Sequence record: OL960580
DNA: 64,000 nt
From: Escherichia phage vB_EcoM_SA21RB
Reading direction: 5' to 3' (one strand)
Below are positions 2,591 to 62,781 of the stretch, one piece after another (positions within the stretch are counted from its first letter, which is position 1; each line of letters starts with the position of its first letter). The position numbers and the translations under genes were made by a program. The notes beneath the pieces were generated by a model. It worked only from the letters and a program-made list of their open reading frames with translations, was not told the origin of the DNA and did no database searches.

Positions 2591-2608
2591 GGCCTGTTTC
2601 GGCAGGCC
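2591..2608. terminator. Intergenic stem-loop GGCCUG-loop-CAGGCC after gene 18
   Basis: 6-bp GC stem seen directly; no strong U-run so may be a stability or processing hairpin rather than a terminator. Confidence 0.4.
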
Positions 2609-3182: not shown

Positions 3183-3189
3183 AATGAAT

Positions 3190-3203
3190 GGGGAGAAATC
3201 CCC
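3190..3203 (+). terminator. Small stem-loop GGGGA-GAAA-UCCCC after gene 19
   Basis: 5-bp stem with GAAA tetraloop, seen directly. Confidence 0.35.
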
Positions 3204-3214
3204 ATCCTGCTTAA

Positions 3215-7009: not shown

Positions 7010-8575
7010 ATGACTATCAAAACTAAAGCTGAACTTTTGAACAAATGGAAGCCATTACTGGAAGGTGAAGGTTTACCGGAAATTGCTAATAGCAAACAAG
7101 CGATTATCGCTAAAATCTTTGAAAACCAGGAAAAAGATTTCCAGACAGCTCCGGAATATAAAGACGAAAAAATTGCTCAGGCATTTGGTTCTTTCTTAAC
7201 AGAAGCTGAAATCGGTGGTGACCACGGTTACAATGCTACTAACATCGCTGCAGGTCAGACTTCTGGCGCAGTAACTCAGATTGGCCCGGCTGTTATGGGT
7301 ATGGTACGTCGTGCTATTCCTAACCTGATTGCTTTCGATATTTGCGGTGTTCAGCCGATGAGCAGCCCAACCGGTCAGGTATTCGCACTGCGCGCAGTAT
7401 ATGGTAAAGACCCAATCGCTGCCGATGCTAAAGAAGCATTCCACCCAATGTATGGTCCAGATGCAATGTTCTCTGGTCAGGGTGCTGCTAAGAAATTCCC
7501 AGCTCTGGCTGCTAGCACACAAACCGTTGTAGGTGATATCTATACTCACTTCTTCCAGGAAACTGGTACTGTGTATCTGCAAGCTTCCGCTGTAGTAACA
7601 ATCGATGCTAGTGCTACTGATGCAGCTAAATTAGATGCTGAAATTAAGAAACAAATGGAAGCTGGTGCACTGGTAGAAATCGCTGAAGGTATGGCTACTT
7701 CTATCGCTGAACTCCAGGAAGGTTTCAACGGTTCTACCGATAACCCATGGAATGAAATGGGCTTCCGTATCGATAAACAAGTTATCGAAGCTAAATCTCG
7801 TCAGCTGAAAGCTGCTTACTCTATCGAATTAGCACAAGACCTCCGCGCTGTTCACGGTATGGATGCTGATGCTGAACTGTCTGGTATTCTGGCTACCGAA
7901 ATCATGCTGGAAATCAACCGCGAAGTTGTTGATTGGATTAACTACTCAGCTCAGGTTGGTAAATCTGGTATGACCCTGACTCCGGGTTCTAAAGCTGGTG
8001 TATTTGACTTCCAGGATCCGATTGATATTCGTGGTGCTCGCTGGGCGGGTGAATCCTTTAAAGCTCTGTTGTTCCAGATTGACAAAGAAGCAGTTGAAAT
8101 TGCTCGTCAGACCGGTCGTGGTGAAGGTAACTTCATTATCGCTTCCCGTAACGTAGTTAACGTACTGGCTTCAGTTGATACTGGTATTTCTTATGCTGCA
8201 CAGGGTCTGGCTACCGGCTTTAACACTGATACTACCAAGTCAGTATTTGCTGGTGTTCTGGGTGGTAAATACCGTGTATATATCGATCAGTATGCTAAAC
8301 AGGATTATTTCACTGTAGGTTATAAAGGTCCGAACGAAATGGATGCTGGTATTTACTATGCTCCATATGTAGCTCTGACTCCGCTGCGTGGTTCCGATCC
8401 GAAGAACTTCCAACCAGTAATGGGATTCAAAACTCGTTACGGTATCGGTATCAACCCATTTGCAGAATCCGCTGCTCAGGCTCCGGCTTCTCGCATCCAG
8501 AGCGGTATGCCTTCTATTCTGAATAGCCTTGGTAAAAACGCTTACTTCCGCCGTGTATATGTTAAAGGTATCTAA
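7010..8575 (+). CDS. 23: Major capsid protein gp23
   Basis: 521-aa ORF, same length as T4 gp23; strong codon bias consistent with a highly expressed gene. Confidence 0.96.
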   Translation: MTIKTKAELLNKWKPLLEGEGLPEIANSKQAIIAKIFENQEKDFQTAPEYKDEKIAQAFGSFLTEAEIGGDHGYNATNIAAGQTSGAVTQIGPAVMGMVRRAIPNLIAFDICGVQPMSSPTGQVFALRAVYGKDPIAADAKEAFHPMYGPDAMFSGQGAAKKFPALAASTQTVVGDIYTHFFQETGTVYLQASAVVTIDASATDAAKLDAEIKKQMEAGALVEIAEGMATSIAELQEGFNGSTDNPWNEMGFRIDKQVIEAKSRQLKAAYSIELAQDLRAVHGMDADAELSGILATEIMLEINREVVDWINYSAQVGKSGMTLTPGSKAGVFDFQDPIDIRGARWAGESFKALLFQIDKEAVEIARQTGRGEGNFIIASRNVVNVLASVDTGISYAAQGLATGFNTDTTKSVFAGVLGGKYRVYIDQYAKQDYFTVGYKGPNEMDAGIYYAPYVALTPLRGSDPKNFQPVMGFKTRYGIGINPFAESAAQAPASRIQSGMPSILNSLGKNAYFRRVYVKGI

Positions 8576-8588
8576 TCTTTGACGATTT

Positions 8589-8620
8589 AAGGGACCTTCG
8601 GGTCCCTTAGTTGTTTTTAT
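8589..8620 (+). terminator. Rho-independent terminator after gene 23
   Basis: AAGGGACC-UUCG-GGUCCCUU hairpin followed by a U-rich tract. Confidence 0.75.
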
Positions 8621-8622
8621 GG

Positions 8623-8630
8623 TATAAATA
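8623..8630 (+). promoter_or_regulatory. Late promoter box TATAAATA upstream of gene 24
   Basis: Exact motif 28 nt upstream of the gene 24 ATG. Confidence 0.55.
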
Positions 8631-8657
8631 AATCATATAAACCAAAAGGAAAGCGCA

Positions 8658-9941
8658 ATGGCTAAAATCAACGAACTTCTGCGCGAATCAACCACAACGA
8701 ATAGCAACTCAATCGGTCGCCCAAATCTCGTTGCTTTGACTCGCGCTACCACTAAATTAATATATTCTGACATTGTAGCAACGCAAAGAACTAATCAACC
8801 TGTTGCTGCTTTTTATGGTATCAAATACCTTAACCCAGATAACGAATTTACGTTTAAAACTGGTGCTACTTACGCTGGCGAAGCTGGATATGTAGACCGA
8901 GAACAAATCACAGAATTAACAGAAGAGTCTAAATTAACTCTCAATAAAGGCGATTTATTCAAATATAATAATATCGTTTATAAAGTATTAGAAGATACAC
9001 CATTTGCTACCATTGAAGAAAGCGATTTAGAACTAGCTCTTCAGATTGCAATTGTTCTTTTAAAGGTTCGTCTATTTTCTGACGCAGCGTCAACGAGCAA
9101 ATTTGAAAGCTCTGATAGCGAAATTGCTGATGCTAGATTCCAGATTAATAAATGGCAAACCGCAGTTAAATCTCGTAAACTTAAAACTGGCATTACAGTT
9201 GAATTAGCACAAGATTTAGAAGCAAATGGATTCGATGCTCCTAATTTCTTGGAAGATTTGCTTGCAACTGAAATGGCAGATGAAATCAATAAAGATATTC
9301 TGCAATCTTTGATTACAGTATCAAAACGCTATAAAGTTACAGGAATTACTGATACTGGATTCATTGATTTGAGTTATGCATCTGCACCTGAAGCTGGTCG
9401 TTCATTATACCGAATGGTATGTGAAATGGTTTCGCATATCCAAAAAGAATCAACTTATACTGCAACGTTCTGTGTTGCTTCAGCTCGTGCCGCTGCGATT
9501 CTTGCTGCATCAGGTTGGTTAAAACATAAACCAGAAGATGACAAATATCTTTCACAAAATGCCTACGGGTTCTTAGCTAATGGTTTACCGCTTTATTGCG
9601 ATACTAACAGCCCATTAGATTATGTAATCGTTGGTGTAGTAGAAAATATCGGTGAAAAAGAAATTGTTGGGTCAATTTTCTATGCTCCGTATACAGAAGG
9701 TCTTGACTTAGATGACCCTGAACATGTAGGTGCATTTAAAGTTGTAGTCGATCCAGAAAGTTTGCAGCCATCTATCGGTTTATTAGTTAGATATGCTTTA
9801 TCTGCAAATCCTTACACTGTAGCAAAAGATGAAAAAGAAGCAAGAATAATTGATGGTGGAGACATGGATAAAATGGCGGGTCGTTCAGATTTGTCTGTTT
9901 TATTAGGTGTTAAACTGCCAAAAATTATCGTTGATGAATAA
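8658..9941 (+). CDS. 24: Capsid vertex protein gp24
   Basis: 427-aa ORF, length as T4 gp24, recognisable similarity to gp23. Confidence 0.93.
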   Translation: MAKINELLRESTTTNSNSIGRPNLVALTRATTKLIYSDIVATQRTNQPVAAFYGIKYLNPDNEFTFKTGATYAGEAGYVDREQITELTEESKLTLNKGDLFKYNNIVYKVLEDTPFATIEESDLELALQIAIVLLKVRLFSDAASTSKFESSDSEIADARFQINKWQTAVKSRKLKTGITVELAQDLEANGFDAPNFLEDLLATEMADEINKDILQSLITVSKRYKVTGITDTGFIDLSYASAPEAGRSLYRMVCEMVSHIQKESTYTATFCVASARAAAILAASGWLKHKPEDDKYLSQNAYGFLANGLPLYCDTNSPLDYVIVGVVENIGEKEIVGSIFYAPYTEGLDLDDPEHVGAFKVVVDPESLQPSIGLLVRYALSANPYTVAKDEKEARIIDGGDMDKMAGRSDLSVLLGVKLPKIIVDE

Positions 9942-9944
9942 AAC

Positions 9945-9970
9945 AAAGGGACCGAAAGGTCCCTTTTTAT
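9945..9970. terminator. Bidirectional terminator between gene 24 (+) and rnlB (-)
   Basis: 9-bp stem AAAGGGACC-GAAA-GGUCCCUUU with U-runs on both strands. Confidence 0.75.
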
Positions 9971-10975
9971 TTAACTTACCAATTCAATCCAAGCCGGACG
10001 AAGTACATCTTGTACCATTTTAACTAATTCCTTTTTAATCAAAGAAGGATTATCCGCTTGAGTTAGAGTAATACCTTCACGAGAAGTTTCTTCCAAAATA
10101 TCTTGAACAGTTAGTCCCATCACCTTTCCAAAATCCTTTGGACCAATTTCGCCAATTTTAGAAATAACGTTATTTACTCGGTTCAGTGTAACGTAGCAAG
10201 CTAAAATTCCCAGCAATTTATTATCAGCTTCTGACAACTCAACTTTAGCTTTAATAGGCTTATCAGACTTTTTCTTTTCGCTGAATTTAGAGTTCTTGCA
10301 TTTAATCGCTACGCGATTGCCATTAGGCATCCAAGAAGGATAACAAGGTTTTAATACATAACCTTCAGCGGTAAATACTTCGCCTTTTGCTTCGGCATTC
10401 CAAACGCATTTATTTGCATCAACTAATCCAGCGTGGTCTACCGTAAAATTATAATCCTGGACGACAGAATCTAAATCATTTGGCAATTTAATAAGTTCTT
10501 CAAATTTACCACGACCCAAAAGTGGAGCCATTTTAAATTTGAATGTATTACAGAATGATTCCATCATATAATCATCGACATAAGTCACATCACCACTTTC
10601 TGTAGTAACAATAATGTCAAATACATAAAAATCTTTATCGCCATAATCAACATTCTTCTGAATGCCAGGTCCAGCGAATTCGCCGAAAACTTGATAAGAT
10701 ACAACCGCTGAAGTTTCCATAATATCTTGTACTGCTTTAATGGAATCAGCGTAATTCTTTAGAATAATTTCATACCCAAAGAAATCTTCAGCAGGAAGAA
10801 TCGGTCCAGTACGTTTAGCACAAGTTGCTTTATCGCGTTCAATAATCAGTGAGAAATTTGTGCCATGAATCTTTTCACGAGCTACCCATTCGCCACCAGT
10901 CAATCCTAAACTGTAGAGTTTTTCAATGAATTTAGAATTGTAATGATTTTCAAGACTGCTATACTTTTTAAACAT
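9971..10975 (-). CDS. rnlB: RNA ligase 2 (Rnl2)
   Basis: 334-aa ORF with nucleotidyltransferase motif KIHGTN near the N-terminus; length and position of T4 rnlB. Confidence 0.9.
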
Positions 10976-10984
10976 AATTAATCC

Positions 10985-11263
10985 TCAAAATGTAATTTCT
11001 AACCAATCACCATCACGCTGATCACTATTGACTTTAAAGCTAAATCCTTCTTTTCTCAGCCAATCACCAATTTCTTCAGTAATCAATTTATCGCGAGCAG
11101 CACAATAATAACTAAAATATGTTTTACCTTGTTCAGCTGCTTTATTAGCAAGTTCCGAAAAATCTTTAATAAAACACTCTAGTTTAAACTGTTTACTTTT
11201 AAGTGCTTTTTCGCGTAATTGATTAGCAAAAGATTCATTTTCATAAAGATCATACTGTTCCAT
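10985..11263 (-). CDS. 24.2: Hypothetical protein (T4 24.2 position)
   Basis: 92-aa ATG-initiated ORF in a tightly packed array. Confidence 0.7.
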   Translation of the reverse strand: MEQYDLYENESFANQLREKALKSKQFKLECFIKDFSELANKAAEQGKTYFSYYCAARDKLITEEIGDWLRKEGFSFKVNSDQRDGDWLEITF

Positions 11264-11465
11264 TTTTCACCTTTTTATTAATATGTCTTTTTCTATAGAC
11301 AACTTTTTCTCGAGTCTCAAATTTATTCTTAGCAGTCATAGCTCGAGCCCACAATACAGCCACTTCTTTCGCCTGCAAGTTCAATTCACGAGCAATTTCA
11401 ATGAATGACTTTCCAGACTCATGAAGAGTAAACACCACAACCTCAGTTCTCATAATCAATCTCAT
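11250..11465 (-). CDS. 24.3: Hypothetical small basic protein (T4 24.3 position)
   Basis: 71-aa ATG-initiated ORF; basic C-terminus. Confidence 0.65.
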   Translation of the reverse strand: MRLIMRTEVVVFTLHESGKSFIEIARELNLQAKEVAVLWARAMTAKNKFETREKVVYRKRHINKKVKNGTV

Positions 11466-11520
11466 GTTATCGAGTTGATGCCATTATATACAACGTTTTC
11501 TGATTGTGTCTTGCGTGCTT

Positions 11521-11548
11521 TCAAAATGAAGAAAGGGGCCGAAGCCCC
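11521..11548 (-). terminator. Terminator-like hairpin after hoc
   Basis: GGGGCC-GAAG-GCCCC hairpin followed by a U-rich tract on the minus strand. Confidence 0.6.
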
Positions 11549-11553
11549 TGAGA

Positions 11554-12684
11554 TTATGGATAGGTATAGATGATACCAGTTTCTAAAGCAGTTTTATGAA
11601 TGATGTATCCATTGCGCGATTCTTGAACATCAACTTCTGGATAGTCTTTCATCATCTTCTGAAGAGTGTAACGATGCAAGTAGTACTTACTATCTGGGTC
11701 GTCAGTTTTCCAATCTTTACCTTCTTCAGTCATTTTTTGGATTTCATCCATAACCCACCAACCGCACCAGATGTAAGCTGAAGTACGATGTGGAAGAGGA
11801 TGAACATAAGGCAATTCACCTTCTGGTTCCGGAGCAACTTTATCAGTTACCTGAACTTGACCTTCTGCTGTGATAGTTTTGCTATCATAATCAGTAGCGG
11901 TAACAGTTGCAGTAACTTCAATAGTTTGACTTCCAATAGATGATGTATCAACGGTGTATACATTAGTTGACCCTTCTACTGGAGAAGAATCTTTCTTCCA
12001 TGAATATTCAATTTGCGCTTCTTCTGGAGCATCAGTGACATTAGCAGTAAATGTAGCCGAAGCATCCTGCTGAACGTTAATAGAAGGAGGAGTCAATATA
12101 ACCTGTGGATTCATTGTCTTCTTATTAACTGTCAATGATACTTCATTAGAAGTAACTTCCTTTGCATCATAATCTGCCGCTGTTACTTGAGCTACGCATT
12201 TAATTCTTTTTACTCCACTTGTAGTTGGAGTATAGCTAAATGTAGCGGAAGTTGCTTCACTAACAGGAGAATCATCTACATGCCACTGATACGTAGCAGA
12301 TGCGCCTGATGGTTGAGAAGCTAAAGCAGCAGTAAATTCAACAGGAGTTCCAATCACTCCAGCAGCAGGACTATCAGGAGTTACAGCTAAGGTAGTTGTC
12401 TGTGTCTTATTTTGAACTGTGATAGTTGTAGTAGCTTCTGCTGTTTCAGCATCAGTATCTGGAACTGTGTTTGTTGCAACTACTTTAATAGTCTTTTGAC
12501 CAGCAGGTCCTTTTAATACATAATCAAAAGTTGCTGCTGATCCTTCTTGAGGAGCATTATCTACGCTCCAAGCATAGGTAATAGTTCCACCTCCAGTTTC
12601 ACCACTGGGTGTAGCAGTAAACTGCTGAGTCTGATCTATAACTCCAGTAGGTGTTTTAGGAGTTATATCAACTGTAAAAGCCAT
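11554..12684 (-). CDS. hoc: Hoc, outer capsid decoration protein with Ig-like domains
   Basis: 376-aa ORF, Thr/Val-rich repeated beta-rich segments; length and position of T4 Hoc. Confidence 0.9.
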   Translation of the reverse strand: MAFTVDITPKTPTGVIDQTQQFTATPSGETGGGTITYAWSVDNAPQEGSAATFDYVLKGPAGQKTIKVVATNTVPDTDAETAEATTTITVQNKTQTTTLAVTPDSPAAGVIGTPVEFTAALASQPSGASATYQWHVDDSPVSEATSATFSYTPTTSGVKRIKCVAQVTAADYDAKEVTSNEVSLTVNKKTMNPQVILTPPSINVQQDASATFTANVTDAPEEAQIEYSWKKDSSPVEGSTNVYTVDTSSIGSQTIEVTATVTATDYDSKTITAEGQVQVTDKVAPEPEGELPYVHPLPHRTSAYIWCGWWVMDEIQKMTEEGKDWKTDDPDSKYYLHRYTLQKMMKDYPEVDVQESRNGYIIHKTALETGIIYTYP

Positions 12685-13424: not shown

Positions 13425-14936
13425 ATGACTGACATTAAAGTACATTTTTATGATTTTAGTCACGTGAGAATTGATTGTGAAGAAAGTACATTTCATGAAC
13501 TCCGTGATTTCTTTAGCTTTGAAGCTGATGGGTATCGTTTTAATCCGAAGTACAAATATGGCCACTGGGATGGACGAATCCGTCTTTTAGATTATAATCG
13601 CCTTCTTCCATTTGGTTTAGTCGGGCAAATTAAAAAGTTCTGTGATAACTTTGGCTATAAAGCCTGGATTGACCCGCAGATTAACGAAAAAGAAGAATTA
13701 TCAAGAAAAGATTTTGATGAATGGCTTTCTAAATTAGAAATCTATTCAGGAAATAAAAGAATTGAACCGCACTGGTATCAAAAAGATGCAGTGTTCGAAG
13801 GATTAGTTAATCGTCGTAGAATTCTTAATCTTCCAACATCCGCAGGTAAATCCTTAATTCAAGCTTTGCTTGCACGTTATTATTTGGAAAATTATGAAGG
13901 TAAAATTCTTATCATTGTTCCAACAACTGCTCTGACAACTCAGATGGCTGATGACTTTGTTGACTATCGTTTATTCAGTCATGCAATGATAAAGAAAATC
14001 GGTGGTGGAGCATCAAAAGATGATAAATATAAAAATGATGCACCGGTCGTTGTTGGTACATGGCAAACTGTAGTAAAACAACCGAAAGAATGGTTCTCAC
14101 AGTTTGGAATGATGATGAATGATGAATGCCATCTTGCTACAGGAAAAAGTATTTCATCTATCATATCAGGTTTAAATAACTGTATGTTTAAATTTGGTTT
14201 GTCCGGTTCATTGCGCGATGGCAAAGCTAATATCATGCAGTATGTTGGAATGTTTGGTGAAATATTTAAGCCAGTAACGACTTCTAAATTAATGGAAGAT
14301 GGACAAGTAACTGAGCTAAAAATTAATAGTATTTTTCTTCGCTATCCTGATGAGTTCACTACTAAATTAAAGGGAAAAACTTACCAAGAAGAAATAAAAA
14401 TTATTACTGGGCTCAGTAAAAGAAATAAATGGATCGCTAAATTAGCTATTAAACTTGCACAAAAAGATGAAAACGCTTTTGTCATGTTTAAACACGTATC
14501 GCACGGTAAAGCTATTTTCGATTTAATTAAAAATGAATACGATAAAGTTTATTACGTATCAGGGGAAGTTGATACCGAAACCCGCAATATAATGAAAACC
14601 TTAGCTGAAAATGGTAAAGGAATAATTATAGTAGCTAGTTATGGTGTATTTTCTACTGGTATTTCAGTTAAAAATCTGCATCACGTTGTTTTAGCGCACG
14701 GTGTTAAATCTAAAATTATTGTATTGCAAACAATCGGTCGTGTATTACGTAAGCATGGTTCTAAGACAATAGCAACCGTCTGGGACCTCATAGATGATTG
14801 TGGCGTTAAGCCAAAATCTGCTAATACGAAAAAGAAATATGTTCATTTGAACTATCTTTTAAAACACGGCATTGATCGTATTCAGCGCTACGCAGATGAA
14901 AAATTTAATTACGTAATGAAAACAGTTAATTTATAA
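13425..14936 (+). CDS. uvsW: UvsW DNA/RNA helicase (SF2)
   Basis: 503-aa ORF with Walker A (PTSAGKS) and DECH box. Confidence 0.92.
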   Translation: MTDIKVHFYDFSHVRIDCEESTFHELRDFFSFEADGYRFNPKYKYGHWDGRIRLLDYNRLLPFGLVGQIKKFCDNFGYKAWIDPQINEKEELSRKDFDEWLSKLEIYSGNKRIEPHWYQKDAVFEGLVNRRRILNLPTSAGKSLIQALLARYYLENYEGKILIIVPTTALTTQMADDFVDYRLFSHAMIKKIGGGASKDDKYKNDAPVVVGTWQTVVKQPKEWFSQFGMMMNDECHLATGKSISSIISGLNNCMFKFGLSGSLRDGKANIMQYVGMFGEIFKPVTTSKLMEDGQVTELKINSIFLRYPDEFTTKLKGKTYQEEIKIITGLSKRNKWIAKLAIKLAQKDENAFVMFKHVSHGKAIFDLIKNEYDKVYYVSGEVDTETRNIMKTLAENGKGIIIVASYGVFSTGISVKNLHHVVLAHGVKSKIIVLQTIGRVLRKHGSKTIATVWDLIDDCGVKPKSANTKKKYVHLNYLLKHGIDRIQRYADEKFNYVMKTVNL

Positions 14937-14950
14937 GGGCTTCGGCCCTT
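14935..14950 (+). terminator. Stem-loop AAGGGC-UUCG-GCCCUU overlapping the uvsW stop
   Basis: 6-bp stem with UUCG tetraloop; weak U-run. Confidence 0.4.
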
Positions 14951-15192: not shown

Positions 15193-15248
15193 ATTAAAAA
15201 AGGCCCAACCAAAAAAGGAAGGGCCAAAACTATAGACTAAAGGTCACA

Positions 15249-16549: not shown

Positions 16550-17175
16550 TACAATAGCTCAAAGAATTCTTTGAGTCCTCTTATTACATGAGCGTGAGAT
16601 TTTCCACACTCTGGACATTTAATTGGAACAGCCAAATAAACAGTAGGCTTTAAAAGCATATCTTTTATAGCTACAATATCTGACTCTGTGATGATAGAAT
16701 ATAAATCTTCCAACTCTTTTTCATTCAAGTCTTCAATTGGAATGCTTTCACCGTTAGCATGAATAGTTTCTATACATGATACTATCATGTGGGCTATATT
16801 TTTATCATCAAAAATTTTAGGGTAATGGAACTTAATTTTAATGTCACCCAGTGTATACCAGAGGTCTTCTGGCGCATCTATTTGCGTATGTAATAGATTT
16901 ATATGGGTTGGTATTTCAGTTCCACAGGTGCACTTCCAGGAGTTTTCGTGATTAACTTCTCCAAGAGAATGCGCCCATAAATGAATCAGCAGTAGTTCTG
17001 ATTCTTGGCGGTTTAAATCTTTTGCATTTGTGCATTCTTTGATTAGCTTTTTAACGATCTCTTCTACTGAACCGTTCTTTTTAGCAGTAATAAGTTCTAG
17101 ATATTCTTTAAGAGTAAATGCGCGACAATTGATTATTTTAGAACCAACTCTCACGTCAAATTTGTATTCATACAT
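16549..17175 (-). CDS. 26: Baseplate hub subunit gp26
   Basis: 208-aa ORF with SD AAGGAG; divergent from gene 51. Confidence 0.88.
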
Positions 17176-23465: not shown

Positions 23466-23469
23466 CAAT

Positions 23470-23495
23470 GGGGACCTTTCGGTCCCCATATTTTT
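23470..23495. terminator. Bidirectional terminator between gene 54 (+) and the minus-strand alt region
   Basis: GGGGACC-UUUC-GGUCCCC hairpin followed by a U-rich tract. Confidence 0.75.
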
Positions 23496-23784: not shown

Positions 23785-23796
23785 TTTGTGTTCCTT

Positions 23797-23845
23797 ATGT
23801 TATATCAGTAAGATTACTATAACACAACACGAGGGACTTGTAAAC
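23797..23845. repeat. 49-bp promoter-leader repeat, copy A (48/49 identical to 39071-39119)
   Basis: Direct comparison of the two sequences. Confidence 0.9.
23816..23845 (-). promoter_or_regulatory. T4-type early promoter (GTTTAC -35, 18-nt spacer, TATAGT -10)
   Basis: Reverse complement of the plus-strand sequence; sits upstream of the 96-aa ORF. Confidence 0.65.
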
Positions 23846-25902
23846 TACATTTTGAACTTTTTAGACATTCCGTTAATGTTAACCAAAGAAGCTAAGATTT
23901 GAGAAACTTCGTTTTCCTCTTCTTTTGATTCTTCTACAAGGAATTGATTAAATCCAGCCATTGGACGAACTTCACCAGTTTCCATTAAATGGTCGCCATC
24001 ATATACTGATTCTTCTAATTGTTCAGAAGGAGGAACGATTGTACCTTCGATTAGATACTTATTATAAGCAGTTTCTTTCATAAAGTACGTACTTACTTTA
24101 TTAATCTTCAGTAAAATTCCACGCGGTAGAATAACTTCAGCTTCTGATGGAAATCCTGATAAATGACCTGGAACGATAACTTTGATTCGCTCAGCTCCTT
24201 TAATTACCATACCCACGCTAGTTTCAGCATCTTCATTAGCATATGTAGAATGACTACCCATATGCATCAAATCTTCTGCATCAACGGAACCTTCTCCTTC
24301 ACCAGAAAATACTGCGCCGGAATCATCTAGAGCCATATAGTTTTTACCATGCTCACCGAAGATATTTGGTTTAAGCGATGTGGATACGAAGTTCTTGAAA
24401 TAGAACATTTTATTTTCAATGTTATGACGCAAAGTTTTAAAGGTAACTTCTTGCCCACGATAAAGAGTAGTTCCTGGAGGAAGAACTGAACCTTTAGCAA
24501 ATGCAGAATCCAACGTCTCGATGTGTTTAATAGCTCGTTCCATATATTCTTCACGAGTAGAATCTGGTTTACCCAAGAGGAACGAGTTCATTTCAACATA
24601 TGAATCTGCACAATAATCTTCAATTACATCAGACTCAGCCTGAGTCAGTCCTTTTGGAGTTACTTCGGTGCTTGCGTATTCATATGCCTGAGCAGCAGAT
24701 TCATTAATCAATTTATAAATGCCATTCATGACAAATTGAATAATAGCTGTCTTTTCATCTGACGTAGCTTTAGAACCTTTAACTAAATCATTGATAATTT
24801 TCTTAATAACATCAAAGCTATTAGAAATATTAATATCAGCAAGATCGCTTAAAATTTTATCAGTTTTATAATCAAAGAATTCTTTATTCTTTAAATATTC
24901 TTGAGAACCTTGATATGTTATATCGCTCTGCAACTTGATGGATGGATCACGTAAACGTGCATGGGCTAATGCAATATGATTTCGGAAGTTTTCTAGTTCA
25001 TAATCGCTAGATTTAAAACGAGAAGCACTTCTCATACCACCGATAGCTCCTTTGCTGAAGTTTGAACCAATCTGAATAACGCCAGAGTTCATTGGTCCTT
25101 CTGCTTTATATACCGGAACTTTAGATTCAAACTCTTGATATTTCTTGGCAGCGAAGCTATCACCCTGAAGCGAAGCATCTACAGTAGAATATTGAGCTTG
25201 CGCTGCTAATCGACGACTAATTTTAGTTTTCTGAATAACAGCTTGATCCGTGCGCTTATCATTTTCTAAAGCAATAGAAGCAGCAACAGCAACAGCTTTA
25301 GGAACAGCATTACCTGTTTTAACATCTACATAAACATCACCAACCTTTGATTCAACTTTTGTGAATAACTCAGTTGAAATAGGAGGTACACCTGGAATGT
25401 CTTCTAAATTGGCATTTTTACGGTAAACCATAATATATGCATACTTTTTATCATAATCCCAGATTTCCTTTAAAAGAACATATCGACCTGCTCCTTTAGT
25501 ACGTACTAAACGGTCAGCAATAACTTGCATTTGACGAGCTGCGCCATTTGTTTTACTTTTTAGTACGCGGAATAGGCATGCGTCAATTTTATACTGTTTC
25601 ATTGTTTGAAGAGCAGTATCAAAAACCGCATTAATAACACCAATTGGATTTCCACCCAAGTTTTTAAGTTTAACTAATGATAGTTTCTCATTAACACCTA
25701 TCATTACGATATGCATCATTTTATCGCCTGGCTTAACGTTTTTATTTGTATCACCGCCAGAGGTGTATGTACAAAATCTAAATCCAGGAAGCACGCTTTC
25801 TTCGCCGGCTTGAATAGCAAAAATTTGAGGTATTTTATGCTTAGGATTTAAGTTAACAACCGGCGCCGAAGCGCCGTCAAATAATTCTGTAATAAGTTCC
25901 AT
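23845..25902 (-). CDS. Alt-like ADP-ribosyltransferase paralog (685 aa)
   Basis: N-terminus MELITELFD shared with the neighbouring paralog; ART motifs YRGQ, STS and EAEVILPRG. Confidence 0.85.
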   Translation of the reverse strand: MELITELFDGASAPVVNLNPKHKIPQIFAIQAGEESVLPGFRFCTYTSGGDTNKNVKPGDKMMHIVMIGVNEKLSLVKLKNLGGNPIGVINAVFDTALQTMKQYKIDACLFRVLKSKTNGAARQMQVIADRLVRTKGAGRYVLLKEIWDYDKKYAYIMVYRKNANLEDIPGVPPISTELFTKVESKVGDVYVDVKTGNAVPKAVAVAASIALENDKRTDQAVIQKTKISRRLAAQAQYSTVDASLQGDSFAAKKYQEFESKVPVYKAEGPMNSGVIQIGSNFSKGAIGGMRSASRFKSSDYELENFRNHIALAHARLRDPSIKLQSDITYQGSQEYLKNKEFFDYKTDKILSDLADINISNSFDVIKKIINDLVKGSKATSDEKTAIIQFVMNGIYKLINESAAQAYEYASTEVTPKGLTQAESDVIEDYCADSYVEMNSFLLGKPDSTREEYMERAIKHIETLDSAFAKGSVLPPGTTLYRGQEVTFKTLRHNIENKMFYFKNFVSTSLKPNIFGEHGKNYMALDDSGAVFSGEGEGSVDAEDLMHMGSHSTYANEDAETSVGMVIKGAERIKVIVPGHLSGFPSEAEVILPRGILLKINKVSTYFMKETAYNKYLIEGTIVPPSEQLEESVYDGDHLMETGEVRPMAGFNQFLVEESKEEENEVSQILASLVNINGMSKKFKM

Positions 25903-28030: not shown

Positions 28031-28036
28031 AAATTA

Positions 28037-28054
28037 AAGGCCCGAAGGCCTTTA
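28037..28054 (-). terminator. Stem-loop AAAGGCC-CGAA-GGCCUUU between the 62-aa ORF and alt
   Basis: 7-bp stem with 4-nt loop, AT-rich flank. Confidence 0.55.
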
Positions 28055-31760: not shown

Positions 31761-31777
31761 AGTATTTTCCTCAGTAA

Positions 31778-32167: not shown

Positions 32168-32204
32168 TTTTATTCTCCGAGATGTTTAATTGCGGTACAG
32201 GTAT

Positions 32205-32233
32205 ATAATATCATATCCTGTACCAAAGTAAAC
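32205..32233 (-). promoter_or_regulatory. T4-type early promoter (GTTTAC, 17-nt spacer, TATTAT) flanked by an 8-bp inverted repeat
   Basis: Reverse complement read directly; inverted repeat GGTACAGG / CCTGTACC at 32194-32201 and 32217-32224. Confidence 0.65.
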
Positions 32234-32642: not shown

Positions 32643-32674
32643 GGAAAATAAAAAAGGACTCCCGAAGGAGTCCT
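32643..32674 (-). terminator. Rho-independent terminator after 30.9
   Basis: AGGACUCC-UUCG-GGAGUCCU hairpin followed by a U-run on the minus strand. Confidence 0.75.
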
Positions 32675-35734: not shown

Positions 35735-35764
35735 TTCAATTTCCTCATTTATTTTGGTAGAGCT

Positions 35765-35794
35765 ATAATATCACAACTCTACCGTAAAGTAAAC
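35765..35794 (-). promoter_or_regulatory. T4-type early promoter (GTTTAC, 18-nt spacer, TATTAT)
   Basis: Reverse complement read directly. Confidence 0.65.
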
Positions 35795-39061: not shown

Positions 39062-39070
39062 AAAGTCCTC

Positions 39071-39119
39071 ATGTTATGTCAGTAAGATTACTATAACACA
39101 ACACGAGGGACTTGTAAAC
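39071..39119. repeat. 49-bp promoter-leader repeat, copy B (48/49 identical to 23797-23845)
   Basis: Direct comparison. Confidence 0.9.
39090..39119 (-). promoter_or_regulatory. T4-type early promoter (GTTTAC, 18-nt spacer, TATAGT) upstream of alc
   Basis: Reverse complement read directly. Confidence 0.65.
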
Positions 39120-39122
39120 AGC

Positions 39123-40710
<1,588 letters not shown>

Positions 40711-40717
40711 AATAAAA

Positions 40718-40733
40718 TGGGCCTTGCGGCCCA
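40718..40733 (-). terminator. Stem-loop GGGCC-UUGC-GGCCC between nrdB and denA
   Basis: 5-6 bp GC stem followed by AUUUUAUU on the minus strand. Confidence 0.5.
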
Positions 40734-40737
40734 CTCC

Positions 40738-41907
40738 TTAAAAATATTTTTTAAAACCCATCATAACTTTATCATCAACATCATTATCAATCTGTGCTAC
40801 AAGGTAAGATGACAGTTCTACTTCTTGTGGCGCGGATTGAACATTATCAGAATTAAGATATTCACGAATCCAAGGATACGGGTGTTTAACCGGAGCATCG
40901 GTAATTGGGCATGGAAGACCACACTGTTTCATACGAGATACAGTTAAGTAATCAATAAAGCTCCACATGCTATTTGTATTTAATCCAGGAACATCGCCAT
41001 CTTTAAATAAATGAACTGCCCAGTCTTTTTCTTGACGGTTAACTTCCATGAAAATATCAACTGCTTCTTGTTCACACTCTTGAGCAATTTTAACCCATTC
41101 ATCGCCATCAGTGCCAAGTTGAAGTTGACGAATAATATATTGAGTGCCTTTAAGGTGAAGCTGTTCATCACGAGCAATGAACTTCATAATCTTGGCATTA
41201 CCTTCCATGATTTCCATGTTCTTATGGAAGTTAAAGGTACATGCGAAAGATACATAAAAACGAATAGCTTCCAATGCGTTGATTACATGAAGGCAAAGAT
41301 AAAGAGATTTCATTAATGCTCGTTTAGTACATTCAACAACTTTGCCTAACTCTTCTTTACGAAATCCTTCTGATAAAATTCCTTCATAATCTTCAACCGC
41401 ATTCTGATATTCACGAGTCTTAACTAGAACGTCATCATAATAACGACCAATAGATTCAGCACGTTTCATGATAGCTTTATCTAATACAATCTCATCAAAT
41501 ACCTTTGATGGATCAGTATAAAGATTTCGCATGATATGGGTATATGAACGACTGTGAATAGTTTCGCTAAAAGTCCATGTAGCAACCCATGTATCAAGGC
41601 TTGGATCTGAAATTAATGACATAAGTACAGCAGATGGTGCACGACCCTGAATGCTATCTAGAAGTGATTGATACTTCAGGTTATTAGTAAAAATATCTTG
41701 CTGATACTGAGGAAGCTTGTTAAATTGTGCAGCATCCATCATCAAGTTTACTTCTTCAGGACGCCAGAAAAATGATAATTGCTTTTCGGTTAAATCTTCA
41801 AAAACTTTATGGCGTTGAATATCATAACGCGCAATACCAAGACCTGAACCGAAGAACATGGGTTCTTTTAAAACATCAACTGGATTTGTATTAAAAACTG
41901 TGCTCAT
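40738..41907 (-). CDS. nrdB: Ribonucleotide reductase small subunit NrdB (uninterrupted)
   Basis: 389-aa continuous ORF; no intron. Confidence 0.93.
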   Translation of the reverse strand: MSTVFNTNPVDVLKEPMFFGSGLGIARYDIQRHKVFEDLTEKQLSFFWRPEEVNLMMDAAQFNKLPQYQQDIFTNNLKYQSLLDSIQGRAPSAVLMSLISDPSLDTWVATWTFSETIHSRSYTHIMRNLYTDPSKVFDEIVLDKAIMKRAESIGRYYDDVLVKTREYQNAVEDYEGILSEGFRKEELGKVVECTKRALMKSLYLCLHVINALEAIRFYVSFACTFNFHKNMEIMEGNAKIMKFIARDEQLHLKGTQYIIRQLQLGTDGDEWVKIAQECEQEAVDIFMEVNRQEKDWAVHLFKDGDVPGLNTNSMWSFIDYLTVSRMKQCGLPCPITDAPVKHPYPWIREYLNSDNVQSAPQEVELSSYLVAQIDNDVDDKVMMGFKKYF

Positions 41908-47349: not shown

Positions 47350-47379
47350 TTTCTTTTCTCCATTAGTTTTGATAGGGTA

Positions 47380-47409
47380 ATAGTATCACACTACTACCCT
47401 TCTGTAAAC
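47380..47409 (-). promoter_or_regulatory. T4-type early promoter (GTTTAC, 18-nt spacer, TACTAT)
   Basis: Reverse complement read directly. Confidence 0.6.
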
Positions 47410-47789: not shown

Positions 47790-47810
47790 TGTGTTTTCCT
47801 CATTTTAATA

Positions 47811-47826
47811 GGGGCTTGATAGCCCC
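47811..47826. terminator. Intergenic stem-loop GGGGCU-UGAU-AGCCCC
   Basis: 6-bp stem seen directly. Confidence 0.4.
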
Positions 47827-47833
47827 TTGATAA

Positions 47834-48157: not shown

Positions 48158-48187
48158 GAAATAAAAAAGGGGACCTCTAGGGTCCCC
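48158..48187 (-). terminator. Rho-independent terminator after gene 32
   Basis: GGGGACC-loop-GGUCCCC hairpin followed by a U-run on the minus strand. Confidence 0.75.
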
Positions 48188-56477: not shown

Positions 56478-56482
56478 ATTGA

Positions 56483-56506
56483 GGGAGCCTTCGGGTTCCC
56501 TTTTTC
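56483..56506 (+). terminator. Rho-independent terminator after gene 35
   Basis: GGGAGCC-UUCG-GGUUCCC hairpin followed by UUUUUC. Confidence 0.7.
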
Positions 56507-60997: not shown

Positions 60998-61015
60998 AGA
61001 GGGCTTCGGCCCTCT
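60998..61015 (+). terminator. Stem-loop AGAGGGC-UUCG-GCCCUCU after gene 37
   Basis: 7-bp stem with UUCG tetraloop; weak U-run. Confidence 0.45.
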
Positions 61016-61026
61016 AAGGATTTTTA

Positions 61027-61821
61027 ATGGCAATTGTAGGTGTTCCTGGCTGGATTGGCGAATCTGCCGTGAATGAAACTGGACAACGCTGGATGGATGC
61101 TGCAATGAAAGCAGTTCGTGTTTCAGTTCCTGGTTGGATGAGCTCAATGGCTGGGCAATCTAAAGAAGTATATTACAGTATTGGCGCTAGTAATTCATAT
61201 AATAAAGACACGCTAATAAATTATCTCAAATCTCAAGGTAGTACTCCTGTTGTTGTTACTATTACAGGAAATATTGTTTCTTCATCAGCTGGGCAACCTT
61301 GCTTAGATTTTCCTAGTTCATTAACTAATGCTTATGTAACGCTTATTATAAATGGTGGCGTAACAGTATATGGTCGTGGTGGTCGTGGCGCGCAAGCGGG
61401 AAACCAGGCAGGCCAAGCTGGCGGTACTGCAATTAACAATGGTATAGGTACTCGTCTACGAATCACTAACAATGGAGCGATTGCTGGCGGTGGTGGCGGT
61501 GGTGGCGCCCAATCAACTGATAATGGATGGGGAGGTAAATATGTTTCTGGCGGTGGCGGTGGACGTCCTTTCGGAGCTGGTGGCAATAATGGCGCAGCAG
61601 CCCCGGGCGCATCGGCATCTTTAACATCTCCAGGTGCAGGCGGAAAAATGTATTCCGGCGTTGGATACTACGGCGGCGATGGCGGTAACGTTGGTGAACG
61701 AGGTAAGGATGCGGTTAGATTGAGCGGCTATTCGAACTCCCCCGGCGCGGCTGGTAAAGCTGTTACTGGTAACGCTCCAACTTGGACTAAAGTTGGTACA
61801 ATATATGGTGCAAGAGTATAA
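61027..61821 (+). CDS. 38: Tail fiber adhesin gp38 (T2-type receptor-recognising protein with glycine-rich motifs)
   Basis: 264-aa ORF; N-terminus MAIVGVPGWIGESAVNETGQRW; several poly-Gly motifs separated by variable segments. Confidence 0.9.
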   Translation: MAIVGVPGWIGESAVNETGQRWMDAAMKAVRVSVPGWMSSMAGQSKEVYYSIGASNSYNKDTLINYLKSQGSTPVVVTITGNIVSSSAGQPCLDFPSSLTNAYVTLIINGGVTVYGRGGRGAQAGNQAGQAGGTAINNGIGTRLRITNNGAIAGGGGGGGAQSTDNGWGGKYVSGGGGGRPFGAGGNNGAAAPGASASLTSPGAGGKMYSGVGYYGGDGGNVGERGKDAVRLSGYSNSPGAAGKAVTGNAPTWTKVGTIYGARV

Positions 61822-62508: not shown

Positions 62509-62781
62509 TTATTTGTTTGTATACATCTCTAGATATCGATATACACCCTCAAAACCCTCGTTGAATTCGTCGATGAGGGTTTTCTTATCTTCTTGAGTTA
62601 ATTCAGAAACAATTTTACGGAATGAATTCTGATTCAACTTTCTACCTTCATGCGTTACTCCAATCTCATTCAGAAATGCAATAAAATTAGCGCGATTCTC
62701 AACAATATCTTCTCTGGAAAATTTAATCAAAATAGACGCAACAGTAATAATTTCACGAACTGTATCAATATTTTTATTCAT
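62509..62781 (-). CDS. asiA: AsiA anti-sigma70 factor
   Basis: 90-aa ORF, N-terminus MNKNIDTVREIITVASILIKF. Confidence 0.92.
   Translation of the reverse strand: MNKNIDTVREIITVASILIKFSREDIVENRANFIAFLNEIGVTHEGRKLNQNSFRKIVSELTQEDKKTLIDEFNEGFEGVYRYLEMYTNK

Follow-up and report, generated by a model that had tools for sequence, protein, structure and literature searches.

In E. coli, the intergenic REP/BIME palindromes make the mRNA upstream of them more stable towards 3' exonucleases, and RNase III substrates have about 20 bp of stem. For bacteriophage T4, Tuerk et al. in 1988 (PNAS 85:1364) reportedly described C(UUCG)G extra-stable tetraloop hairpins of its mRNA. Two later sources likewise place the first discovery of the UUCG tetraloop in T4 mRNA (PMC4371310; Tuerk et al. 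1988 as cited in PMC2811024), and T4 terminators are described as combining a stem rich in GC and a loop of 4 nt with poly(U), many of them having been identified by computation (PMC2988022, section 11, citing the T4 genome review). In T4-like phages, GGGG...CCCC stem-loops terminate transcription in reporter assays (PMC2839356). Experiments on T4 genes 38 and 25 have shown a hairpin that brings a Shine-Dalgarno (SD) sequence and an AUG within working reach of each other, and these two are the only split sites named in the review section that treats them (PMC3014915, section 29).

Here we evaluated such hairpins in a stretch of 64,000 nucleotides from Escherichia phage vB_EcoM_SA21RB (record OL960580; this whole stretch is hereafter the window). 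We consider it very probable that they are cistron-end RNA hairpins with extra-stable tetraloops that punctuate the polycistronic phage transcripts, some as terminators, some as end-caps and one as the bridge of a split ribosome-binding site. Each would fold in the transcript by pairing a short 5' arm rich in G with a 3' arm rich in C around a C(UUCG)G loop at most sites and a GNRA loop at others.

Window, gene map and comparative set

The window is ~97% identical to Tequatrovirus and T4/RB32-like, with bases 8000-12000 and 1-25000 showing 97-98.5% identity to Tequatrovirus phages (HY01, ECO07P2, RB32, T4-type). It spans gene 17 to arn.3 and contains late head, baseplate and tail-fibre genes, the early alt-to-rnh block and the genes up to arn.3. 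On the RB32 gene map, which was transferred to the window by tblastn, 95.5% of the window is coding and the intergenic DNA amounts to 2,886 nt with 34% G+C.

Hairpins were enumerated on both strands, with stems of at least 5 bp (G-U pairs allowed) and loops of 3-8 nt, and scored with ViennaRNA. The comparative set comprised T4, RB32 and 134 loci of T4-like viral contigs, anchored on gp24, gp19, gp54 and gp32; for each site, the C-terminus of the upstream protein was located in each locus and read to its stop codon, and the best sense-strand hairpin was taken from the next ~70 nt. The T4 (NC_000866) and RB32 records have no annotated terminator or stem-loop features, and their sequences were mapped directly instead.

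GC-rich hairpins mark the ends of genes

The intergenic GC-rich hairpins are real and strongly non-random. An initial annotation of this DNA, entered under the hairpin at 8589-8608, had described at least a dozen related intergenic hairpins, and all 13 of its coordinates were confirmed as perfect or near-perfect GC-rich inverted repeats with loops of 4-5 nt; its list was incomplete, however, as four further hairpins of the same kind (2591-2608, 3188-3205, 15202-15225 and 25861-25876) bring the total to 17 (Table 1). Stems of 5-10 bp, as expected of intrinsic terminators, were found at 17/17 sites, with loops of 4-5 nt at 16 and of 14 nt at 15202. The hairpins start 0-22 nt from the upstream stop codon (25861 lies 29 nt after the alt stop), and as RNA they fold at -9.5 to -17.7 kcal/mol; set against shuffles of its own short sequence, each site has a z-score between -1.9 and -5.2.

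Table 1. GC-rich hairpins of the window, read on the transcribed strand as 5' arm, loop and 3' arm.
Position	Strand	Hairpin	Setting	Energy (kcal/mol)	T4 and distinct relatives
2591..2608	+	GGCCUGU-UUCG-GCAGGCC	16 nt after gene 18 stop; no U-tract; late-promoter motif TATAAATA begins 2 nt past stem	-12.8 (z -4.3)	Identical in T4 at 100532-100549; hairpin at this position in 10/12, with 7 different stems
3188..3205	+	AUGGGGA-GAAA-UCCCCAU (GNRA loop)	5 nt after gene 19 stop; no sense-strand U-tract	-11.3	Identical in T4; 10/12
8589..8608	+	RNA AAGGGACC-UUCG-GGUCCCUU; DNA AAGGGACC-TTCG-GGTCCCTT	13 nt after gene 23 stop; U-rich tail (7 U in 10), then gene 24 late promoter TATAAATA	-15.8 (z -4.1)	19/19
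9946..9965	both	AAGGGACC-GAAA-GGUCCCUU (minus strand UUUC)	Convergent junction of genes 24 and rnlB; both strands have U-runs	-15.2 / -14.8	Close relatives: GAAA, UUUC or AAAA loop on identical stem
11534..11549	-	AGGGGC-UUCG-GCCCCU	4 nt after hoc stop; then UUCUUCAUUUU; predicted terminator	-11.8	Identical in T4; 7/7
14935..14950	+	AAGGGC-UUCG-GCCCUU	Overlaps uvsW stop codon; no U-tract; uvsW.1 SD GGAG begins 2 nt past stem	-9.5 (z -1.9; weakest site)	Kept in close relatives only
15202..15225	both	GGCCC...GGGCC stem, 14-nt loop	Between convergent uvsW.1 and uvsY.-2; local fold; AAAAAA before stem on plus strand, UUUUUU after stem on minus strand; predicted terminator, probably two-way		Present in T4 at 114450-114472
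23469..23488	both	UGGGGACC-UUUC-GGUCCCCA (minus strand GAAA)	Convergent junction of genes 54 and alt.-3; both strands have U-runs	-17.3 / -17.7	11/12 and 9/10; loop flipped among relatives 96-99% identical
25861..25876	-	CGGCGC-UUCG-GCGCCG	Within codons 9-14 of alt.-2	-12.8	Identical in T4
28036..28053	-	AAAGGCC-UUCG-GGCCUUU	Overlaps alt.1 stop; then AAUUUUAUAAAUA (weak U-tract and late-promoter motif for alt)	-12.0	Identical in T4; 7/7, all with UUCG loop
31777..31792	-	AGGGGC-UUUG-GCCCCU	9 nt after 30.7 stop; no U-tract; 30.6 SD GAGG begins 5 nt past stem	-14.1	10/11, mostly UUCG loop, (u)gaggaaaa always next
32655..32674	-	AGGACUCC-UUCG-GGAGUCCU	4 nt after 30.9 stop; then UUUUUUAUUUU; canonical predicted terminator; early-promoter-like TTTACA-17-TAGTAT downstream (32624-32596)	-15.4	Identical in T4; 13/13
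40718..40733	-	UGGGCC-GCAA-GGCCCA	Between nrdB stop with overlapping SD (UAAGGAG) and UUUUAUU-AUG of denA	-16.4	Identical in T4
47810..47827	-	AGGGGCU-AUCA-AGCCCCU	6 nt after frd.3 stop; no U-tract; frd.2 SD GAGG 9 nt past hairpin	-12.9	Identical in T4; 4/6
48169..48187	-	GGGGACC-CUAGA-GGUCCCC	22 nt after gene 32 stop; then UUUUUUAUUU; predicted gene 32 terminator; early-promoter-like site downstream (48136-48108)	-14.3	Identical in T4; 14/14, 8 with UUCG loop
56482..56501	+	AGGGAGCC-UUCG-GGUUCCCU	4 nt after gene 35 stop; then UUUUCUUUAUAAAUA, then gene 36 late promoter; one G-U pair	About -13.3 to -15.1 on plus strand vs -8.1 on minus strand	Hairpin, U-tract and TATAAA kept
60998..61015	+	AGAGGGC-UUCG-GCCCUCU	1 nt after gene 37 stop; no adjacent U-tract; SD AAGGA of T2-type gene 38 directly after hairpin	-13.4	

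Short GC stems need few bases, and the window holds 21 coding hairpins of similar predicted stability, so some such structures do arise without a punctuating role and one could suppose that all of them are palindromes formed by chance or result from the base composition around them. Their distribution argues otherwise. At dG <= -10 kcal/mol there are 37 hairpin loci in the window, 16 of them intergenic and 21 coding, which corresponds to 5.5 per kb of intergenic against 0.34 per kb of coding sequence (a 16-fold excess), and dinucleotide shuffles of the whole window gave 12.5 +/- 3.8 loci against the 37 real ones. The motif scan with folding energies that the initial annotation had proposed thus revealed strong intergenic enrichment, and the composition-matched control that it had named as a possible refutation turned out in its favour, with shuffles of the intergenic DNA, segment by segment, yielding 0.57 +/- 0.77 loci (maximum 4, n=300) against 15 real, a 26-fold excess, and 0.15 against 13 at dG <= -12 kcal/mol. 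An independent terminator scan also ranked the same sites at the top in every 20-kb segment. Together with the conserved orthologous positions, the covarying stems and the loop strand bias presented below, these values leave the chance reading with practically no probability; the shuffle and conservation controls refute it.

What unites the hairpins is their form rather than their ancestry. A repeat search found no sequence similarity between sites outside the stems and no repeat family that includes the GC hairpins, and an Rfam search of the whole window returned no family at gathering score. Because no similarity extends past the stems, the likeness among the hairpins is convergent and not due to descent, so that the term "family", under which they had been introduced, does not apply in that sense; the idea of a mobile or repeated element was rejected on the same observation. 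Nor are they the only strongly GC-rich sequences of this genome, as had been claimed, since 13 of the 15 clusters of 14-nt windows with at least 12 G+C are coding (the Gly-rich part of gp38 is an example) and 4 of the 12 intergenic GC-rich patches are not hairpins of this kind.

Positions are conserved and stems covary

Among 237 distinct orthologous downstream sequences (flanking protein identity of at least 40%), 190 hold a hairpin of <= -9 kcal/mol, against 35 of 2,370 shuffles (1.5%), and it is this positional conservation relative to shuffles that is independent of how the hairpins were selected. The stems themselves vary, and those following gene 23 read GGGACC, GGAGCC, GGGAGCC, GGGAGAC, GGGAACC, GGCAACC or GGGACTC across lineages. 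In fixed-register alignments with 98.8% of cells paired, changes on both sides of the stem were found at 7/8 stem pairs at 23>24 (one sequence, misaligned by MAFFT, was left out) and at 4/6 at nrdB>denA, counts that are partly circular because the sequences had been chosen as the best hairpin per region.

Comparison with T4 positions, another check suggested at the outset, revealed the same hairpin in the same place at 14/17 sites in NC_000866, most of them base-for-base identical. A C(UUCG)G hairpin of T4's own occupies 23>24, with the segD insertion after it, and the 37>38 junction of T4 holds the split ribosome-binding site published for gene 38. At uvsW>uvsW.1, the T4 reference lacks 2 G inside the hairpin and uvsW is therefore fused with uvsW.1. 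No hairpin is present at the codons of the paralogous alt gene that match the alt.-2 site at 25861.

Loop orientation points to the transcript

When each site is read on its sense strand, C(UUCG)G is found at 8 sites (8589, 11534, 14935, 25861, 28036, 32655, 56482 and 60998) and U(UUCG)G, with a U-G closing pair, at 2591 only, giving a C-G closing pair in 8/9 UUCG sites. GNRA loops occupy four sites (GAAA at 3188, on the plus strand of 9946 and on the minus strand of 23469; GCAA at 40718), and the other sense-strand loops are UUUG at 31777, AUCA at 47810 and CUAGA at 48169. UUCG loops in the window are thus 9 sense and 0 antisense, with CGAA at no site on the sense strand, and all seven intergenic CUUCGG hexamers lie in the sense of local transcription and within hairpins. 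A separate class of CGAA loops had initially been distinguished (11535, 28037 and 32655), which is an artefact of reading the non-transcribed strand: these three belong to minus-strand transcription units and therefore have UUCG in the RNA. Relatives have the same bias, with sense-strand loops of UUCG in 80 cases, GAAA in 19, GCAA in 12, UUUC in 11 and CGAA in 1. Because a palindrome in DNA has no orientation, the 80 to 1 ratio of UUCG to CGAA points to the RNA, rather than the palindrome in the DNA, as the target of selection, and we see in it a clean and reusable argument for RNA-level selection.

This bias bears directly on whether the palindromes could instead work as DNA, either as recombination or breakpoint sites or as sites for DNA-binding proteins, and so shuffle gene modules. 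Such a role has been proposed for the RB49/phi1 PeSL (promoter-early stem-loop) cassettes and for T4 GGGC...GCCC deletion endpoints; recombination between GGGG...CCCC stem-loop cassettes is on record, and T4 deletions that end at GGGC/GCCC are cited along with it (PMC2839356). In our data, the segD insertion that separates T4 from this phage starts at the 8589 hairpin (alignment break at 8586), early-promoter-like sites follow 32655 and 48169, and relatives of 96-99% identity carry the loops of 9946 and 23469 in opposite orientations, so DNA-level events do occur at these palindromes. A palindrome without orientation would nevertheless not account for the excess of sense-strand UUCG in relatives and window alike, only 1 of about 16 T4 breakpoints falls at a hairpin while the others are homing-endonuclease or intron insertions, no repeat extends past the stems as it does in the roughly 100-bp conserved PeSLs, and many hairpins belong to the conserved core of late genes rather than to variable regions. 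We therefore hold a DNA-level role to be highly improbable, and the recombination-breakpoint idea is largely rejected, with the segD junction alone coinciding with a hairpin.

Sites with a U-tract are predicted terminators

Evaluating the hairpins further as RNA elements, we scored a U-tract as at least 6 U in the next 10 nt after the stem on the transcribed strand. On the sense strand, 7 or more U in 10 were counted at six sites (8589, 11534, 32655, 40718, 48169 and 56482), the tract at 28036 is marginal with 5 U in 10, and each strand has 6-8 U at 9946 and 23469, two sites that are 3-5 nt away from the stops of convergent genes. The first reading of this DNA took the sites with U-runs as terminators, some of them bidirectional, and this agrees with the tracts found here, as 8 of the listed sites fit intrinsic terminators and U-runs on both strands between convergent genes make 9946 and 23469 candidates for two-way action.

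From these features we infer that the U-tract sites are intrinsic terminators or attenuators. Host RNA polymerase would terminate or attenuate at 8589, 11534, 32655, 40718, 48169 and 56482 as it does at intrinsic terminators, with 8589 a predicted terminator or attenuator after the major capsid gene (gene 23), and transcription would end in both directions at the convergent junctions 9946, 23469 and probably 15202. The hairpin at 56482 is stable only on the coding (plus) strand because of the G-U pair in its stem. Promoter-like sequences were also found beside several sites: the late-promoter motif TATAAATA follows 2591, 8589, 28036 and 56482, and promoter-like sites with an extended -10, which are consensus matches alone, follow 32655 and 48169, the other sites having late promoters or none. 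A hairpin followed by a late (TATAAATA) or early promoter would constitute a module at which transcription stops and then restarts. A literature search did not find a genome-wide T4 3'-end or Term-seq map.

Sites without a U-tract are candidate end-caps

No sense-strand U-tract is present at 2591, 3188, 14935, 25861, 31777, 47810 and 60998 (7/17), and for that reason termination cannot explain these seven sites. A sub-class that lacks U-runs and abuts an SD had been proposed before, with a role in transcript stability or processing; it is real at 14935, 31777, 47810 and 60998, where the SD of the next gene lies 0-9 nt past the stem, and the role ascribed to it is plausible. By analogy with the stable 3' stem-loops of polycistronic messages in bacteria, the hairpins that lack a U-tract probably protect RNA from exonuclease decay. 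Those at 2591, 3188, 14935, 31777, 47810 and 60998 would be stable end-caps, most likely a block to 3'-to-5' exonucleases, which would give upstream and downstream message segments different stabilities and may in addition prevent the neighbouring ribosome-binding site from pairing with upstream sequence. RNase III processing sites were considered and rejected, as stems of 6-10 bp are far below its substrates.

The proximity to SD sequences raises an alternative, namely that hairpins lacking a U-tract serve mainly in translation initiation and have little effect on RNA decay, whether by keeping the SD unpaired, by forming a ribosome standby or insulator structure, or by bridging a split SD-AUG pair. 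The SD positions at the four sites just named fit this, as does the order of hairpin then GAGGAAAA at 30.7>30.6, which is kept down to 33-55% flanking-protein identity. At nrdB-denA, moreover, the layout of SD, hairpin, 3-9 nt and AUG is found in 20/21 distinct sequences and copies the T4 gene 38 site, for which the review section describing it gives experimental support (PMC3014915, section 29). The hairpins at 2591 and 3188, however, also lack a U-tract and are 60-80 nt from the next start codon, so a translation role cannot cover the whole sub-class. As a general account we regard it as a serious but less probable alternative; roles in translation and in stability are not mutually exclusive.

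A putative split ribosome-binding site for denA

At 40718, the minus strand reads UUUUAAGGAG-UGGGCC-GCAA-GGCCCA-UUUUAUU-AUG, such that the nrdB stop codon overlaps an SD and the denA AUG (MKEIATE...) lies 7 nt past the hairpin. The stretch from hairpin to AUG contains no SD sequence. This arrangement, with the SD 5' and the start codon 3' of the hairpin, occurs only at 40718 among the window sites, and at 60998 the SD is 3' of the hairpin. Relatives keep the nrdB-denA layout in 20/21 distinct sequences, mostly with UUCG loops and with varied stems, down to 49% identity of the nrdB C-terminus. The site had been listed as intergenic, which holds in that the nrdB stop precedes it and the conserved denA AUG follows it, but it is inside the denA coding sequence as annotated in RB32 and T4.

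Given this layout, the site is more plausibly a component of a split ribosome-binding site, while also being terminator-like. The hairpin would bridge the SD and the AUG and so reduce their spacing of 23 nt to about 7 nt. In the lowest-energy fold, the stem is extended by G-U pairs into the GGAG, and an extension of this kind could hide rather than present the denA SD. More broadly, we tentatively suggest, as a possibility short of an even chance, that a subset of the hairpins are obligatory parts of ribosome-binding sites, of which nrdB-denA would be the clearest case, combining attenuation after nrdB with an SD-AUG bridge in a layout kept across T4-like genera.

If this is true, denA would join genes 25 and 38 as a third case of a split ribosome-binding site, and its annotated GTG start in T4 and RB32 would be 8 codons too long; that it probably is too long by this amount is also argued by the GTG overlapping the SD and being unconserved. 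Our literature search found no prior report of a denA split ribosome-binding site, an absence that does not prove newness, and this site may be the only element described here that is absent from the literature.

Comparison with known systems

The interpretation from which we started is partly supported, being broadly right with the corrections given above. Its value as a discovery is small, as it was from these hairpins that the UUCG tetraloop first became known, and they belong to standard T4 biology. They do have value for annotation, in that they mark the ends of transcription units, explain old errors of the T4 reference (bases missing inside hairpins) and probably indicate a wrong annotated start codon for denA.

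Among the systems introduced at the beginning, REP/BIME elements resemble the hairpins without a U-tract in closing the 3' end of a cistron with a stable stem-loop, which is the role proposed for them here, and differ in being a repeated family with conserved sequence, whereas the hairpins of the window share composition only. PeSLs are likewise intergenic GGGG...CCCC terminating stem-loops beside sigma-70-type early promoters, and 32655 and 48169 have a promoter-like site downstream; our sites differ from them in having no ~100-bp repeat in common and no general tie to gene-content breakpoints, and many are in late-gene regions beside late promoters. Relative to the intrinsic terminators of T4 and E. 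coli, two-way versions occur here between convergent genes, and 7/17 sites fall outside the definition for lack of a sense-strand U-tract.

For the split ribosome-binding sites, the likeness extends to the sequence: T4 gene 38 reads UAAGGAG-AGGGGC-UUCG-GCCCUU-CUAAAU-AUG, and denA reads UAAGGAG-hairpin-UUUUAUU-AUG. The spacing between SD and AUG would be cut from 23 to about 7 nt at denA, compared with 22 to 5 at gene 38 and 27 to 11 at gene 25. Gene 38 of the window is of T2 type and has an ordinary SD after its hairpin, unlike that of T4.

The closest match is with the C(UUCG)G hairpins of T4 itself, which belong to the same phage group and, as far as the sources cited describe them, share the intercistronic setting, the loop and the closing pair with 8 of our sites. 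Because the hairpins of the window are these long-known T4 CUUCGG tetraloop hairpins, the finding is an ordinary one; the phenomenon has been in print since 1988 (Tuerk et al.; T4 reviews), and its recovery here is a correct rediscovery. Nothing essential differs in what those sources describe, the departures being the U-G closing pair at 2591 and the GNRA or other loops at some of the sites.

Loop orientation and differences from the T4 reference

Comparison of the 4-nt loops at the two-way terminators of the convergent 24/rnlB and 54/alt.-3 junctions across T4-like loci (L001, L003 [T4], L005-L007, L010 and L035-L038) revealed loops that were flipped (GAAA or TTTC) or altered (AAAA) among genomes that are 96-100% identical, with the stems unchanged where the loops differed. 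At one-way sites, such flips were almost absent (UUCG 80, CGAA 1). Read from sequence comparison, these patterns suggest that loop inversion at palindromes is frequent and that selection removes inversions where orientation matters.

The T4 reference (NC_000866) also differed within hairpins. Two G residues are missing from it inside the C(UUCG)G hairpin at uvsW>uvsW.1, and because of this loss uvsW (503 aa) and uvsW.1 (76 aa) are joined into the annotated T4 'uvsW' of 587 aa. The missing bases are probably an old gel-compression error; UvsW.1 has reportedly been handled as a distinct protein in later structural work. The T4 differences at 54/alt.-3, where CC is lacking, and at 35>36 leave a weaker stem in both cases and, judging from the sequences, may be sequencing artefacts of the old record. 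Downstream of gene 23, the alignment between the window and T4 is broken exactly at the hairpin, with the segD homing-endonuclease gene inserted at that position in T4, and the C(UUCG)G stem that follows gene 23 in T4 differs from that of the window.

Hairpin-associated features, with coordinates in the window unless marked T4
Feature	Position	Strand	Details
Region of the gene 23 hairpin and the break in the T4 alignment	8586-8643		
24/rnlB two-way terminator	9946-9965		
uvsW/uvsW.1 hairpin	14935-14950; T4 114185-114198		AAGGGCTTCGGCCCTT in the window phage and RB32 vs AAGCTTCGGCCCTT in T4
Gene 25 split ribosome-binding site	16557-16576	minus	GAGG, then hairpin ACUCAAAG-AAUU-CUUUGAGC, then UAUUGUA-AUG
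54/alt.-3 two-way terminator	23469-23488; T4 122719-122736		TGGGGACCGAAAGGTCCA in T4
54-nt repeat upstream of alt.-3	23792-23845	minus	
54-nt repeat upstream of rnlA	39066-39119	minus	
alt.-2 coding hairpin	25861-25876	minus	C(UUCG)G; codons 9-14, residues DGASAP
Long AU/GU-rich hairpins	32178-32210, 35756-35783, 47374-47400	minus	-14 to -16 kcal/mol
denA start region	40710-40740	minus	
35>36 hairpin	56482-56501; T4 155810-155829		AGGGACCC in T4 vs AGGGAGCC
T2-type gene 38, GC-rich stretches	61387-61755	plus	GGCGGTGGTGGC-type runs
Hairpin 3' of gene t	62551-62583	plus	-18.0 kcal/mol, 14 bp

A putative split ribosome-binding site at denA and the published site at gene 25

The denA start annotated in RB32 and T4 is a GTG that overlaps the AAGGAG Shine-Dalgarno sequence. 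The conserved start is an AUG 8 codons downstream of that GTG and 3' of the hairpin, and of 21 distinct relatives 20 keep the resulting layout of Shine-Dalgarno sequence, hairpin and AUG. For gene 25, the split ribosome-binding site known from the literature is present in the window, where it is located within the 3' end of gene 26.

Hairpins and GC-rich stretches within coding sequence

Within the window, GC-richness is most pronounced in stretches of coding sequence that belong to the T2-type gene 38, whose protein shares only 49% identity with RB32 gp38, in the N-terminal part. The window's most stable hairpin lies 43 nt 3' of the gene t stop, is followed by CUUAUCUUCU and sits antisense inside the asiA coding sequence, with the same sequence in T4 and RB32. 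On the minus strand it reaches only -10.4 kcal/mol because it contains two G-U pairs. This hairpin possibly serves as terminator for the late 38-t transcript. For mobE and segF, T4 reviews mention terminators located at the 5' end of the coding sequence (PMC2988022), and the hairpin within alt.-2 may be analogous to these. The paralogue alt has DEDTTLP at the matching position, without the hairpin.

Hairpins at early-promoter-like sites

Upstream of 30.7, cd.2 and frd.1, early-promoter-like sites carry long AU/GU-rich hairpins that begin directly 3' of the GTTTAC -35-like hexamer and cover the spacer and -10 region. Their formation is predicted only in read-through RNA arriving from upstream. 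These promoter-spanning structures and the GC tetraloop hairpins belong to different classes.

Upstream of alt.-3 and of rnlA lie the two copies of a direct repeat of 54 nt, which share 96% identity. The repeat combines GTTTAC...TATAGT, similar to an early promoter, with a long hairpin in the leader (-14 to -22 kcal/mol), and this arrangement is similar to the promoter-early stem-loop (PeSL) type of cassette of phages RB49 and phi1.
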